From: a virus
Taxonomy: Duplodnaviria > Caudoviricetes
Reading direction: 5' to 3' (one strand)
Length of the DNA: 55,693 bases
Virus record (IMG/VR): IMGVR_UViG_3300045120_000102
Coordinates: 1 to 55,693 of that record
A program made the translations under genes and the position numbers. The stretch's first letter is position 1. Each line of letters starts with the position of its first letter. The notes under the pieces were generated by a model. The model did not search any database. It was not told where the DNA came from and saw only the letters and a list, made by a program, of their open reading frames with translations. Shown here piece by piece: positions 8,241-14,422 of this stretch.

Positions 8241-8470
8241 TCAACCTCTCCTCTGAGCTCTCGTTTCACTTCGATGATGGCGTGCTCAGCCCAGTCATCG
8301 ACGAACCCGAAACCCTCCGTGCAGTAACACAACACATGCTTCGTGTCGCCCGGGTCGGTGTCCACGTCGATGATCGGGATGTGATGCGCCACAGCGTGCG
8401 TCAGGTCTTCGATGCGAGGTTCAAGCCGCTGCCACAACTGCGAGCACAGGCCGTCGGTCAGACCGCTCAC
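8237..8470 (-). CDS. Hypothetical protein
   Basis: Overlap chain. Confidence 0.65.
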   Translation of the reverse strand: MSGLTDGLCSQLWQRLEPRIEDLTHAVAHHIPIIDVDTDPGDTKHVLCYCTEGFGFVDDWAEHAIIEVKRELRGEVE

Positions 8471-8754
8471 AACCTGATCCCGAACCCGCCGAGAAAGTCC
8501 CTGACGATTGGGCTGCCGAACACCTGGGACACAATCGGGTCGATCAGTTTATCGTCAGCCGTCCCCGGGATGGCATCCGTGATCTTGTCGACGGTGCCCG
8601 AGGCAAGCTTCTCGGCAGCAGCGAGCTGCGCGACCACGGTGGCTTCCATCAGTTTCGGCATCCACTCCTTGAACAAATCGACGAGCAGATCCCGCAGTTT
8701 CGGCCACAACAGCTCGAACAGCTTCCCGACAACCACAGCCACCAGAGCATTCAT
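8467..8754 (-). CDS. Lysis-region protein (DKITDAIPG..DD..ID motif)
   Basis: Motif recalled from mycobacteriophage lysis regions. Confidence 0.7.
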   Translation of the reverse strand: MNALVAVVVGKLFELLWPKLRDLLVDLFKEWMPKLMEATVVAQLAAAEKLASGTVDKITDAIPGTADDKLIDPIVSQVFGSPIVRDFLGGFGIRL

Positions 8755-8834
8755 GCGAAAACCGCCAATGTTAGAAGGTAGAAGAAGAACACGACGAATA
8801 TCGTGATCAGCACGCGGTTTACGCGGTCAGTCAA
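8751..8834 (-). CDS. Single-TM micropeptide (27 aa)
   Basis: MTDRVNRVLITIFVVFFFYLLTLAVFA; TTGA and ATGA overlaps. Confidence 0.55.
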   Translation of the reverse strand: MTDRVNRVLITIFVVFFFYLLTLAVFA

Positions 8835-8905
8835 CCGAGCAGCACTATCAGGACGGCGACCAATACCACGCACGTCAGGAACCACAACCAGTCGTTACGG
8901 GTCAT
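8831..8905 (-). CDS. Single-TM micropeptide (24 aa)
   Basis: MTRNDWLWFLTCVVLVAVLIVLLG; ATGA overlap with lysB stop. Confidence 0.55.
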   Translation of the reverse strand: MTRNDWLWFLTCVVLVAVLIVLLG

Positions 8906-9933
8906 GCCGCGCGCAGGTAGTCGATAGCGGGGCCGATGTTGTAGTTCACATGCGGTCCCGTCTGATGAACGAAGAACAGGCCCGCATCCCACAATGCTTT
9001 GAACATTGCGGTTATCTCGATCAGCCGGGCGATCTCACTCTTCGGGTTCAGGATTTCCAGCACCTGCGCGAGGATCGAATCAGGCCCGGACAGCACGTCC
9101 ATGTTCATGATGAATTTGTAGATCGCGGTCTTGTCTTCAGCACTCTGACCGGAACAGTCCGTGTACAGGTCCGCTCTGTGGGCGTAGTCGCGCCACCACG
9201 GCGGGGTGTTCGTCAGCAATTCGTCGGCGATGCCATGCGACGTTGCTTCCGCTGTTGGTGCGCCCGGATCGGCCCACGCTTTGCCCTGTTCCCGCATCGG
9301 GTTGCCGAACGTGACCGCTTTCAGCATGTGCTGTTTAGCCCAGTGCAGGCGCCCGCCCTCCGGTTCGATGGCGTACTTCCACAACTTGCTGGTGATGACG
9401 GCGCCCTGGCTGTACCCGATCATTGAGACGCCGTGCTGCTCGATGCGGCGCCGGTGCTCAAACCCGGGTTCCATCCGTTCGAACTCGACGCACGCAGCCT
9501 CATAGCCTTCGTCAACCGACTTGCCCATAGGGAACACCGCAGCCGGATAGCCGACCCACTGCCACCGATACTTGTTCTCGACAGCGCGGGCGGTGTCCGC
9601 GTCAGGGCCAACCCATCCCGGCACACCAGTACCGCACACCGTCAACAACAAAGGCCGAACGTCCGGGCCCGGTGGGCGTTTCAGGTAGCCCATCACATAC
9701 TTCGTCTCGGCGTTAATCACACCCGGCAGATACTTCTCCTTAGGGAGGCGTCCCTGCTCCTCATACCGTGACTGCATCTCAGCGACCGCCGCCGTCATCG
9801 CGTCGTCGTAGACGGTGGTGTCAGCCAACTCGTGGGCGTAGGAGAAACGTGGACGCATCCACGCCTTGATCTTCCGAACTTCCTCGCTGTTGTCTCCGCT
9901 ACCAATTCCTACGTAGTCGTCGCCGATTCTAAT
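8902..9933 (-). CDS. lysB: Lysin B (cutinase-like mycolylarabinogalactan esterase); probable ATT start at 9933 (first ATG 9858)
   Basis: GYSQG nucleophile, AVTFGNP, DLY, HVNY; N-terminal (I)RIGDDYVGIGSGDNSEEVRKIKAWMR. Confidence 0.92.
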   Translation of the reverse strand: MRIGDDYVGIGSGDNSEEVRKIKAWMRPRFSYAHELADTTVYDDAMTAAVAEMQSRYEEQGRLPKEKYLPGVINAETKYVMGYLKRPPGPDVRPLLLTVCGTGVPGWVGPDADTARAVENKYRWQWVGYPAAVFPMGKSVDEGYEAACVEFERMEPGFEHRRRIEQHGVSMIGYSQGAVITSKLWKYAIEPEGGRLHWAKQHMLKAVTFGNPMREQGKAWADPGAPTAEATSHGIADELLTNTPPWWRDYAHRADLYTDCSGQSAEDKTAIYKFIMNMDVLSGPDSILAQVLEILNPKSEIARLIEITAMFKALWDAGLFFVHQTGPHVNYNIGPAIDYLRAA

Positions 9934-10000
9934 GATGTCCTGCTTTCCACCAGTCCGCGACTATCGCCATCTGGCTGACTTTCTTTCATCATGGGGCGGT

Positions 10001-10501
10001 TCAGCCAGCCTTCGCTGGCCGTCTGCTGTTGCGCTTACAGGGGAGACACACTCGCTGCCGCGCAGTCTGACGAGTATTAACCGCGTTGAACTCATGGCCC
10101 CACTTGCAGTGAGTGCTCCGAGCCCGCGGGTTAGTGCCATGCCTGCGCATGTCTTGCATATTCGCAAGGTGTGTGTCGTATCGAAGATTCTCGACACGGT
10201 TATCGGTTGGCTTGCCGTTGTTATGGCACACCTCAAGCCCGGGCGGGCATGGACCGATGAACACCGCCGCGACAAGCTGATGGACATAGCGGCTATTACC
10301 CTTGCCAAGGTTCACGTATTGGTGCCCTTGGCGCCGTAGGTGGCCGGGCTTCAGGGCACGGCCCCGGGCGAACCTCCGGCGTCCATCTGGAAAGATCACT
10401 ATCCGGTCAAGCGACCGGACCATGCCACGGTCGGATACCTCGTAACTACCTTCATATCCGGGGATTGGGCGCCATACTTCGGGCTCGTGGGTAACATCCA
10501 C
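10001..10501 (-). CDS. NUMOD4-HNH homing endonuclease
   Basis: EVWRPIPGYEGSYEVSDRGMVRS (NUMOD4); VHQLVA..F; CHNNG..DNRVENL. Confidence 0.9.
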   Translation of the reverse strand: MDVTHEPEVWRPIPGYEGSYEVSDRGMVRSLDRIVIFPDGRRRFARGRALKPGHLRRQGHQYVNLGKGNSRYVHQLVAAVFIGPCPPGLEVCHNNGKPTDNRVENLRYDTHLANMQDMRRHGTNPRARSTHCKWGHEFNAVNTRQTARQRVCLPCKRNSRRPAKAG

Positions 10502-10584
10502 TTCTAGCCCCCTTTCTGCTGATACCAGATGGGCGGGTCAGGGGTCGGGATGCGTTAGCGCGCACCCGGCCCCGTCTATCAATT

Positions 10585-11925
10585 CTACTGTGTCTGTCCG
10601 ACTTTCCAGTCGTGGTAATCGGTTGTGCCGCAAACCTTGTCGCGGACTTCGCCGAGCGCGTTGACGAGCGTCTGACCACCCAATTGCGGCCAGCCTTTGC
10701 CGTCAATGCCGCGGAGTTGGTCCCAGTTCTCTTGCAGCAACTGCCGGTCGGTGAGTTGCTTCGGCGGCGGCTGGCTCGGGACGTCTGGCGGCGGGACCGT
10801 CCCCTCGACGTACTTGCGTACCGCGACAGTGAACACGTCCCACGGGAAGCCATTGCCTACGTCGGTGTGGTTTCCGATCCCCAACGCTTGGGTGACGAAT
10901 TTATGGTCAGAAATTCCCGGCCCCTTCGTCGCGTAGGGCGGAATGATGACGTTAGCCGATATCGTGGGGTACTTCTTGCAGTCCTGCACCGCCAGGTAAG
11001 CCATCACGTCGATAGCGCGCCCGAACTTCGACAACCATTGCTCGCGGGTCCATCCGGCGAATGAGCCGGCGAAGCAGCCGTTGATGCTGAACACGTTGGC
11101 GTCTAGGACGGACCATGAGTAGAGGTCGGTGTCGATCACGTCTACGACGGTGACGCCGTGATCGTTCGGGTCTTCGTGCACTGTGTAGTGGTAGCTGACA
11201 GCGTTGTTGCCGGTTGTGGAACGCATCCACGCAGCCAAATCAGTGGCGTTGCTGTTCGCTTCCTGGGTGTGGATGAACCAGTTGATCGGCGGACGGCTAC
11301 GGATGCTGCCGTGCGGGTCTTCGTGGTCCCAGCCGATCTGGTCTATCTCGTTGAAGTCCGGGCGGTTATCGGGCGCTGCTGGCACGGGTGGTTGTCCTTT
11401 CGCCACTCTGTCGTACAGTTCGTTCACCGGACCCCAGTGCTTCGCGTAAGCATCAGGGACACCTGACCGCTGAACCGTTTGCGCCCACTTGTTTGCTTCG
11501 AGCGCATTGTTAGCGGCGTACGGGGAACGTTTCAGCGAGCCCATGAACAGCACGGTGGAGTCGTGTAGGTCCATGCGTTTGCGGGTGCCTTCGGGGTCGC
11601 CGTATAGGCCGCCCCATCCCCACGGGTTCGGGTCGTTCGGCCCGGAGGTCTGCTGTTGATATAGCCCTACGCTGCGTGAGTCGTTGCCGAGGCTGTCGTG
11701 CGGGAACCGGTCGGGGTCGGCATCGAAGCACGGGTCTGCGTGATTACCGGGGCACCAGAACTGCCCGCCCGCCCCCACTTCCTGGGATACGGTCATCCCG
11801 GCGATGATGCAGGCGCCACGCTTGTCAGGCATGTTCAGCTCGTCGGCGACGGCAATCATCATGGCCATGACCTGCTCGCGGGTGTGCAGCGGCTTCGGGG
11901 CAAATGCGCCTTGAATGAAGCTCAC
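10585..11925 (-). CDS. lysA: Lysin A (lysozyme-like N-domain + amidase-2 + LGGxT cell-wall-binding C-terminus)
   Basis: SVGLYQQ...AQTVQRS; FIHTQE, SYHY, NHTDVG; WPQLGGQTLV. Confidence 0.92.
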   Translation of the reverse strand: MSFIQGAFAPKPLHTREQVMAMMIAVADELNMPDKRGACIIAGMTVSQEVGAGGQFWCPGNHADPCFDADPDRFPHDSLGNDSRSVGLYQQQTSGPNDPNPWGWGGLYGDPEGTRKRMDLHDSTVLFMGSLKRSPYAANNALEANKWAQTVQRSGVPDAYAKHWGPVNELYDRVAKGQPPVPAAPDNRPDFNEIDQIGWDHEDPHGSIRSRPPINWFIHTQEANSNATDLAAWMRSTTGNNAVSYHYTVHEDPNDHGVTVVDVIDTDLYSWSVLDANVFSINGCFAGSFAGWTREQWLSKFGRAIDVMAYLAVQDCKKYPTISANVIIPPYATKGPGISDHKFVTQALGIGNHTDVGNGFPWDVFTVAVRKYVEGTVPPPDVPSQPPPKQLTDRQLLQENWDQLRGIDGKGWPQLGGQTLVNALGEVRDKVCGTTDYHDWKVGQTQ

Positions 11926-12395: not shown

Positions 12396-12566
12396 TTATA
12401 GGTTCGGTTCCTTCACCAGTAGTTGCCAGACCTGATCGGACTGCTCGGTGTCGAACCCGTACAGTTCGTCGAATGTTCCGCAGCGTTGGCAGCACGTCAG
12501 CAGCGTCATACGTTCGTTGTCCCGCAACGCCATAGCCATCACCCAGTCATGGGAACAGGCGGTCAT
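12396..12566 (-). CDS. Small Cys-containing protein
   Basis: MTACSHDW...CCQRCG; ATGA overlap. Confidence 0.55.
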   Translation of the reverse strand: MTACSHDWVMAMALRDNERMTLLTCCQRCGTFDELYGFDTEQSDQVWQLLVKEPNL

Positions 12567-14422
12567 CCGACCCCCGCTGACACTGTTTCCCGCCTGACGC
12601 CCGAGTTGACGGTTTCGGCCCGTACTCCTGCGTTGGCGTTCTGCGCCCGGATGACGGTGGTGTTGTGGTCGGTGGCGGTAGGGATTCCTTCGCTGACCAT
12701 GCCGGCGGCGATAAGCCCGACCACAGCGAGAAGGTAGGACTGCCCGGACCATGTCAGGCTGCCGCCCGCGGTCAGCTGGACAGTGACGGTTGTGTTGCCG
12801 CCAGCGCCGGCGGCGACTACACCCGCCGCGGACAGCGCGACTGTGGCCGACATGACGGCTGTGTTGGTGGCTGTCGTCGCCCCGGCAGCGGTCAGGCCGA
12901 CGGTGACGGTAGTCGAGGCGGTACGGGTGAAGCCCAACACGCCCGAGGCGGTGAGGCCGACCGTGACCGTAGTTACTGTCGTGCTGCGCGCGACTCCGAC
13001 CGCGCCCGCAGCGTCCCGGGTCACGCTGACCGTGATGGCGGCGGAGCCTGTGGCTGCGACGACGCCGTCCGCTGAACGTCCCACCGAAACGGACGTTGGG
13101 GCCGACCCGGCGGCAGCCATAGCTCCGGCTGCGGTCAAACCTGCTGCGACGAAGGTGGCGGCTTGGCCGGTCATCACTGCGCCAGCCGTACCCGCCGCCG
13201 TCAACCCGACCGTGACTACGGTTGGTGTTGTGGAGGTGCTAGCAGCTACCGAACCTGCAGCAGTCAGACCTGCCGCAACGGTGGTTGATGCTTGCCCGGA
13301 GCCGCCCCCAGACGCGGTCAAGACTGCCGCGACCGTGGTAGAAGCTGCCCCCATCATGCCGCCGGCGCCCGCAGCGGGACGCCCAACGGTGACAGTGGTG
13401 GCGGTAGACCCAGCCGAGAACCCTACTGCGCCAGCCGCTGAGCGCCCTACGGTGGCAGTGGTGGCTGTGGTAGGTGCTGCGATGGCTACAAAGCCTGCGG
13501 CGGTCAAGCCTGCCGCGGCGGGGGTTGAGGCGGCTCCGAGCACCCCGGCGACTGTGCTTCCGGTCGCCGTCAATCCGACGGAAACGGCGGTAGTTGCGGA
13601 CCCGCTCGATGCCGCTACGGCTCCAGCGGCGGTCAGGCCGACAATGCCGGTGGTGTTGGCGGCGCCGGTGGATGTACCGGCAGCGGTCAGGCCGACGGTG
13701 ACAGTAGTTGATGCCGCGCCGGAAACGGTGACGGCCCCAGCCGCCGACGGGACAACCGCGATTGCAGTCCCTGGCGACCCGGAGATTGCAGCGACTACGC
13801 CTATAGCGGTGCGGTCGACGGTGACCGGGGTTGATGCCGACCCGGTGACTCCTGCGGTTACGGTGCCAGCCGCGGTCAATGTGACCGTAATTGCGGCGTT
13901 CGAGGACGCCGCGGATGTAGCTACCGAACCGGCCGATGTGACTGCAACAGATATGGGCGCTGACGTCGATCCGGTTACCGCTACAGTGCCGGTCGCTGAA
14001 CGGCTGGCCGTGACCGTGGTAGAAGTTGATCCGCCTGATATGCCGACAGCACCGGATACGGTCAGACCAGCCGATACAGCGGTGGGTGTCGAGCCAGCAG
14101 CTGCGGTGACCGAGCCGGCCGCTGCGAGTCCGGCTGCTGCCGCGGTTGTGGCCGTGCCTGTGGATGTGCCGCCGGCAGTGACGCCGACAGTGACGGTGGT
14201 GGGCGCCGAGCTGGTCGTAGCGGCGACAACACCCGCCGCCGGACGGCCCACCGCGATGGCGGCGGTGGTGGTGCCGGTGGATGCGTCGACAACTCCCGCA
14301 GCGGTAAGACCGACTGCTACCGCAGTGGTGGCCGTTCCGCTGTACCCGGCTACCGCTGCAGTCGCATAAACGACGCGGGGTCGCAGCGCACCAACCGGAT
14401 AGCCCCTACCGGCACGAGCCAT
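12563..14422 (-). CDS. Ala/Thr/Val/Gly-rich repetitive fibre-like structural protein
   Basis: About 25 imperfect ~20-23 aa repeats (TTVTVGLTAAG). Confidence 0.85.
   Translation of the reverse strand: MARAGRGYPVGALRPRVVYATAAVAGYSGTATTAVAVGLTAAGVVDASTGTTTAAIAVGRPAAGVVAATTSSAPTTVTVGVTAGGTSTGTATTAAAAGLAAAGSVTAAAGSTPTAVSAGLTVSGAVGISGGSTSTTVTASRSATGTVAVTGSTSAPISVAVTSAGSVATSAASSNAAITVTLTAAGTVTAGVTGSASTPVTVDRTAIGVVAAISGSPGTAIAVVPSAAGAVTVSGAASTTVTVGLTAAGTSTGAANTTGIVGLTAAGAVAASSGSATTAVSVGLTATGSTVAGVLGAASTPAAAGLTAAGFVAIAAPTTATTATVGRSAAGAVGFSAGSTATTVTVGRPAAGAGGMMGAASTTVAAVLTASGGGSGQASTTVAAGLTAAGSVAASTSTTPTVVTVGLTAAGTAGAVMTGQAATFVAAGLTAAGAMAAAGSAPTSVSVGRSADGVVAATGSAAITVSVTRDAAGAVGVARSTTVTTVTVGLTASGVLGFTRTASTTVTVGLTAAGATTATNTAVMSATVALSAAGVVAAGAGGNTTVTVQLTAGGSLTWSGQSYLLAVVGLIAAGMVSEGIPTATDHNTTVIRAQNANAGVRAETVNSGVRRETVSAGVG

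Follow-up and report, generated by a model that had tools for sequence, protein, structure and literature searches.

A lysB gene with ATT at the family start position in a virus genome from soil metagenomes

Codons besides ATG, GTG, and TTG have been described as starts in Escherichia coli infC and pcnB, which start at AUU (near-cognate codons initiating at 1 to 2% of the AUG rate; bioRxiv 10.1101/063800), and in Streptomyces infC and sigR, which start at ATC and GTC, respectively, under control of initiation factor 3 (IF3; PMC5472188). For infC, pcnB, and sigR, different species share the unusual codon, and experiments have demonstrated its part in regulation (PMC5472188; bioRxiv 10.1101/063800). 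Among phage lysis enzymes, LysB proteins of the Ms6 type carry an N-terminal domain; the corresponding region of Ms6 LysB binds peptidoglycan, and phage without that domain are viable and lyse abruptly (PMC8309991). Here, we report on the lysB gene of an uncultivated soil mycobacteriophage, IMG/VR record IMGVR_UViG_3300045120_000102, a complete-looking virus record of 55,693 bp originating from soil metagenomes (analyzed at its full length and called the window below), in which ATT stands at the position of the family's first methionine. As in E. coli infC and pcnB and Streptomyces infC and sigR, a near-cognate codon lies at Met1 with a Shine-Dalgarno (SD) sequence upstream and no canonical in-frame alternative, and weak, IF3-sensitive initiation, as in infC and pcnB, would be the expected outcome. 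Unlike the codons of infC, pcnB, and sigR, the ATT of the window is known from the sequence of one metagenomic genome.

All 2,085 GenBank phage records matching the window LysB are mycobacteriophages (best match, Nebkiss, 61.8% identity), and the nearest named relatives are Nebkiss gp35 and MooMoo gp29 (59 to 62% identity). With these Ms6-type LysBs, the window protein shares its length, its two-domain build, a GYSQG motif, invariant Ser/Asp/His residues, and a place in the lysis cassette after lysA. Unlike theirs, which begin at ATG or GTG and overlap the lysA stop (the usual arrangement among relatives, as GTGA, ATGA, or TGATG), the lysB of the window has ATT and follows lysA after an HNH gene and a 67-nucleotide (nt) spacer.

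The 5' region of lysB was read directly on the minus strand (coordinates in Table 1), which confirmed an earlier observation. A sequence-only reading of this DNA had placed Met1 at ATT 9933, had found no ATG, GTG, or TTG in frame between the upstream TAG (9963-9961) and ATG 9858, had pointed to an N-terminal pattern of LysB proteins, and had quoted a purine-rich stretch before the ATT; all four points hold, the last as GGAAAGCAGGA at 9948-9938, with an SD that is correctly spaced. From the TAG to ATG 9858, the frame encodes S R T G G K Q D I I R I G D D Y V G I G S G D N S E E V R K I K A W, the two consecutive isoleucines being those of an in-frame ATC (9936-9934) and of the ATT that it immediately precedes. 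Gene calling had started lysB at ATG 9858, giving a public protein of 318 amino acids (P0002) clipped by 25 residues. An open stretch lacking start codons is not unusual in itself (about 16% of 73 long open reading frames [ORFs] scored have at least 34 startless codons); it is homology, not the open frame, that carries the observation.

That homology is extensive. Among 119 homologue cluster representatives, 113 start exactly six residues before a [YWF][VIL]G.G motif, mostly with MR or MK, and thus in the register of the ATT; the six exceptions comprise two small internal insertions, one protein shortened by five residues, and three whose N-termini were called longer. None of the 119 starts at the Met26 position. 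The N-termini of Nebkiss (GTG) and MooMoo (ATG) align with the window LysB residue for residue. Start codons were compared in 52 related loci (49 from IMG/VR and those of Nebkiss, MooMoo, and I3), where the aligned codon is ATG in 47 and GTG in 3, the remaining two, both Bixzunavirus loci, having ATG three codons upstream of a small insertion. A family hidden Markov model made from 62 homologues gave the ATT-started protein 553.4 bits and the Met26-started one 511.2 bits, so that the extension adds 42 bits; when the first 25 residues were shuffled 200 times, scores averaged 513.6 bits and peaked at 522.0, the best shuffle adding about 11 bits. The match of the extension is thus well outside what chance would give. 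Identity to the consensus was 17/24 for residues 2 to 25, 47/65 for residues 26 to 90, and 160/241 for residues 91 to 343, and eight of the nine columns within residues 2 to 25 that are at least 90% conserved are retained. Judged by this sequence comparison, the 25 codons upstream of ATG 9858 are real LysB sequence, as conserved as the rest of the protein.

The predicted protein has the features of a complete LysB. D29 LysB (3HC7) matches residues 93 to 341 (phmmer E value, 9.3e-32), with a Foldseek match to the same structure at an E value of 2.2e-17 and a template modeling (TM) score of 0.79 normalized to the target. GYSQG occupies residues 173 to 177, and S175, D255, and H328, which we take to be the catalytic triad as in D29, are invariant in a 63-sequence alignment. 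All sequence and fold features tested agree in identifying the product as LysB, a predicted mycolylarabinogalactan esterase with a cutinase-like domain. Because 3HC7 covers only residues 93 to 341, residues 1 to 90 form an extra N-terminal domain, which appears peptidoglycan-binding-like: Pfam PG_binding_1 (PF01471) matches residues 17 to 57 weakly (E value, 0.082; 13.5 bits, under the 23-bit cutoff), and this match is seen only with the ATT extension included and is gone in the Met26 form. An AlphaFold (AF2) model built on the 63-sequence alignment had a mean predicted local distance difference test (pLDDT) score of 89.3, with 91, 97, and 98 in the three 10-residue blocks at the N-terminus, and places short strands at residues 2 to 15 and a helix at residues 17 to 26. 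According to the model, a protein started at Met26 would lose the first helix of the N-terminal domain and would probably keep the esterase core.

Signals around the ATT were evaluated as duplex energies with a 12-nt anti-SD motif. The SD-like sequence before the ATT reaches -9.3 kcal/mol, compared with -6.0 kcal/mol for ATG 9858 and -5.1 kcal/mol for a small ORF upstream; -9.3 kcal/mol or better is found at 4.1% of all minus-strand positions and at 22% of 73 longest-ORF starts. Among the 12 ORFs with at least 30 startless codons, lysB is alone in combining a near-cognate codon with a preceding SD of -8 kcal/mol or lower. The RNA fold around the lysB start was no better than shuffles (z = 0.9), the start region had no Rfam match, a promoter scan returned 0 sites, and none of five terminator-like sites lies between the HNH stop and the ATT. 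No phage tRNA genes were found, and hence no unusual initiator tRNA.

We tentatively favor, at a little less than an even chance, the reading that this is a full-length lysB whose initiator has turned into ATT and that is still weakly translated from AUU; both the use of AUU and its level are what we infer. The strong SD GAAAGCAGG, 5 nt upstream, would hold 30S subunits, fMet-tRNA would initiate on AUU under IF3 proofreading, at a rate that is a small fraction of that on AUG, and full-length LysB would be made in reduced amounts; given a strong SD at 5 nt from the ATT, some initiation on AUU is to be expected. The likeliest origin of the ATT would be a single G-to-T change from ATG, and locus L008, which reads ATGAGAATCGG, differs from the window by that single base. 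LysB is reportedly needed for efficient lysis. Because it is helpful but dispensable, the weak start may be a tolerated or hitch-hiking mutation rather than a selected one. In mycobacterial reporters, a start mutation lowered expression without abolishing it (PMC9094748). Starting at the ATC that immediately precedes the ATT in the same frame, which would yield a protein one residue longer, has a precedent in Streptomyces infC, which starts at ATC (PMC5472188); with an SD-to-codon gap of 2 nt, versus 5 nt for the ATT, and with the family Met1 aligned to the ATT, we give it hardly any weight, the least of the readings considered.

The surroundings of the start, which the sequence-only reading had not taken in, include an HNH endonuclease gene inserted between lysA and lysB and a mosaic junction close to the ATT. 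The HNH gene is free-standing by its features, having NUMOD4 and HNH_3 domains and standing between two genes that most relatives have side by side. Over 9700-10800, the window was compared with contigs from four soil runs. A contig of run X2, about 98% identical through the end of lysA and the HNH region, diverges below 9940; its 30-nt flank is not found elsewhere in the window. Record 15 of run X3, from an unrelated soil study, matches 9811-9934 with three mismatches and then continues with 20 nt unlike the window. Because similarity breaks at 9940 in the first and at 9934 in the second, a mosaic junction lies within 9934-9940, 1 to 7 nt upstream of the ATT, and the SD belongs to the HNH-side module.

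An HNH gene directly upstream of lysB was found in 0 of the 52 related loci and is present in Ramsey and Mozy, which were added to the HNH screen. The window resembles cluster F mycobacteriophages (Ramsey, Mozy, Soul22, Girr, and Hamulus), in which a NUMOD4/HNH_3 gene lies between lysA and lysB. Annotated lysB starts in the cluster F phages with this gene order are all canonical, ATG in Ramsey and Flathead, GTG in Soul22 and Girr, and TTG in Mozy, and they overlap the HNH stop or lie within about 20 nt of it, unlike the start behind the 67-nt spacer of the window. Cluster F DNA is 70 to 75% identical to the HNH region of the window over at most 26% of a 761-nt query among the matches listed. 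As a separate observation on this cluster, the annotated LysB start of Hamulus (L107, 2236-2281) is a TTG inside the conserved N-terminus (LGEGD...), and the in-frame GTG used by Soul22 and Girr (VRIANAYVG...) lies upstream of it; the Hamulus GenBank LysB call is probably about 15 residues short.

A more elaborate reading ties the ATT to the neighboring selfish gene, with the dosage of a lysis enzyme set by a homing-endonuclease immunity polymorphism. In phages without the HNH gene, the endonuclease would target the conserved junction of lysA and lysB (ATGAGGATCGG-like); its carrier would be protected by site changes (ATT AGA for ATG AGG), or these changes would have been co-converted with the HNH gene; and lysB would be forced to start on the IF3-sensitive AUU. 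In a less elaborate version, selection keeps AUU and would hold LysB low until late infection. Even taken together, these two versions are improbable in our judgment.

Several observations weigh against a functional AUU start, and the first of them concern the base itself. Run X1 is the probable source of the record, with 99% of sampled 31-mers of 9000-11000 present in its contigs, yet the aligned X1 contigs end at 9907 and resume at 10685, leaving 9908-10684, the ATT included, uncovered (the comparison took in about 83% of the run, so the gap is uninformative). No RNA data set was listed among the runs containing this sequence. Of the three mismatches in the X3 record, two are placed, at 9841 and 9877, the latter being synonymous and the sole placed difference within codons 2 to 25; the third is unplaced and could be at 9931, where a mismatch followed by three matches would still align. 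If the phage really has ATG, and the ATT stems from a mistake in base calling or assembly or from a minority variant that entered the consensus, one G-to-T change would be enough, the L008 motif being otherwise identical to the window. The record is metagenome assembled, with no isolate; the X1 contigs leave the site uncovered, and X1 contains two coexisting strains (word depths, 10.8 and 4.6), which differ at five positions from 9828 to 9877. We nevertheless consider an error distinctly unlikely: consensus substitution errors are rare at about 11 to 15x word depth, the 31-mers of the region recur at the stated rate in X1 as an independent contig set, and the X3 record aligns across the codon to 9934, which is not decisive with one mismatch unplaced. 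Run X3 holds many further LysB variants, and the variants of X1 and X3 together point to strong lysB microdiversity in soil.

Other points on the same side concern the codon and its age. The ATT was found in this single genome and is not conserved in the loci compared; a non-canonical codon at the start position occurs in 0 of the 52 related loci and in 0 of 6 HNH-adjacent lysB genes of cluster F. ATT is not enriched at Mycobacterium tuberculosis Ribo-RET initiation sites (PMC9094748). The closest relative, with no more than 65% identity, gives no date for the change, and a recent start loss or a base error would be expected to leave the upstream codons intact just as a working start would. 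By analogy with Ms6, which is viable and lyses abruptly when the LysB binding domain is missing, a truncated Met26 product could suffice (PMC8309991).

Much of this would also be expected of a start-loss allele, which is unlikely and yet the alternative that we take most seriously. Under it, a recent ATG-to-ATT change would leave LysB made from Met26 only, or hardly made, the Met26 product being without the initial strands and first helix of the N-terminal domain, and the upstream codons would be intact since the change is young. Such an allele may have been tolerated, or it may have hitch-hiked with the HNH gene next to it. Restriction of the ATT to one genome, its lack of enrichment among M. 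tuberculosis starts, the dispensability of both LysB and its binding domain in Ms6, and the moderate SD of ATG 9858 are all consistent with it, as is the nearby mosaic junction, which shows recent rearrangement of the region. The strong SD argues the other way, being well placed for an ATT when near-cognates reach 1 to 2% of AUG in E. coli (bioRxiv 10.1101/063800), and so do the 25 upstream codons, which show no visible decay, and the absence of any homologue representative starting at the Met26 position.

The small ORF MAIVADWWKAGHH, which starts at ATG 9970, raises the possibility that LysB synthesis depends on it. Its stop and the ATT overlap (ATTAG), and overlapping stops and starts also occur at the lysB stop and the next ATG and in relatives (ATGA, GTGA). 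One route would be a +1 frameshift at CAT-TAG-A that fuses a 13-residue leader to LysB. In the +1 frameshift of prfB (RF2), an internal SD lies 3 nt before the shift codon, which is followed by an in-frame stop; the small ORF has a like layout, with AGGA-CAT-CAT-TAG spacing that puts AGGA 3 nt before the codon preceding its stop. Unlike in prfB, the P-site codon would be unable to re-pair in the +1 frame, as tRNA-His moving from CAU to AUU would pair at one of three positions (wobble), unlike the CUU-to-UUU shift, and no homologue carries a fused leader. The other route would be termination at the TAG followed by re-initiation at the ATT; in E. coli, re-initiation depends on IF2 and on initiator tRNA, and IF3 reduces it (PMC2268962). 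The ORF has a weak SD of its own (-5.1 kcal/mol), no detectable conservation, no Rfam match, and no stable structure; it is only an extension of the HNH frame beyond three stops, and either route is highly improbable. Those three stops also rule out an HNH-lysB fusion by readthrough. Hidden canonical starts in another frame (GTG 9950 and ATG 9970/9992) were rejected as well: their peptides are unlike any LysB N-terminus, and their frames stop at the ATT or within a few codons of it.

No near relative was matched by megablast among GenBank phages or with short protein fragments as queries. A degenerate codon pattern gave 0 hits in IMG/VR and 46 in JGI metagenome contigs, of which 0 encoded LysB by tblastn; an exact 22-mer of the spacer gave 0 hits in IMG/VR, where the best match to the window HNH protein is 51% identical. 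Because the ATT is known from one genome, damping of lysis and mere tolerance cannot be told apart. The sequence-only reading had seen in AUU a selected device of translational damping; with ATT in one genome and in none of the 52 related and 6 cluster F loci, that view is not supported.

A real AUU start here would mean that a lysis enzyme of a mycobacteriophage naturally begins at a near-cognate codon. Full-text literature searches (phage matches judged by title; supplementary files, such as start-codon tables, outside their scope) found no ATT start codon described for a mycobacteriophage or phage gene, and no phage lysis gene with an AUU or otherwise non-canonical start appeared by title among the matches listed. 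Standard gene callers would clip such proteins, and the public 318-amino-acid call would miss part of the binding domain; clipped LysB calls matter for mining LysB enzymes as antimycobacterial agents. Should the ATT instead reflect start loss or an error, this is an ordinary case and chiefly a reminder to check N-termini against homologues.

Table 1. Coordinates of the lysB start region and of neighboring genes in the window
Feature	Position	Strand	Evidence or remark
lysA (endolysin, Amidase_2)	10585..11925	-	Pfam; PHROG 700, E 5e-130
Free-standing HNH endonuclease gene, NUMOD4 + HNH_3, between lysA and lysB	10001..10501	-	Pfam, E 4e-13 and 5e-12; PHROG 1492, E 4e-69
Spacer, 67 nt, from HNH stop to ATT; contains SD	9934..10000	-	Sequence
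In-frame TAG closing the lysB frame upstream	9961..9963	-	Sequence
Small upstream ORF MAIVADWWKAGHH*	9929..9970	-	ATG at 9970; TAG at 9931-9929 overlaps last ATT base
Shine-Dalgarno-like GAAAGCAGG	9939..9947	-	Ends 5 nt before ATT; -9.3 kcal/mol
ATT, putative AUU start of full-length LysB	9931..9933	-	Sequence; aligned with family Met1
Codons 2 to 25, N-terminal extension preceding first ATG	9859..9930	-	Conserved among homologues
First canonical in-frame start, ATG (Met26)	9856..9858	-	Internal Met conserved family-wide
Full-length lysB, 343 codons + TGA stop	8902..9933	-	PHROG 102, E 9.6e-102
24-codon hydrophobic ORF MTRNDWLWFLTCVVLVAVLIVLLG	8831..8905	-	Sequence; ATG overlaps lysB TGA (ATGA)

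On the minus strand, the cassette runs from lysA through the HNH gene and the spacer to lysB and on to small hydrophobic or membrane ORFs, lysB having its place in the lysis cassette with lysA. The 24-codon ORF MTRNDWLWFLTCVVLVAVLIVLLG had no match in PHROG and is, from its sequence, a candidate small membrane or lysis-accessory peptide. A 95-amino-acid protein 3' of lysB (8467-8754, minus strand) matches PHROG 2653, a family of unknown function (E value, 9e-18); it is conserved as a neighbor of the lysis cassette and has no role assigned to it. Farther away, 12563-14422 (minus strand) holds a repetitive ORF of 619 amino acids, rich in Ala, Gly, Thr, and Val and with recurring GLTAAG-like units, which is probably a tail fiber or minor tail protein; the 528-amino-acid frame that is open antisense to it (12783-14369, plus strand) is most likely an artifact of composition.

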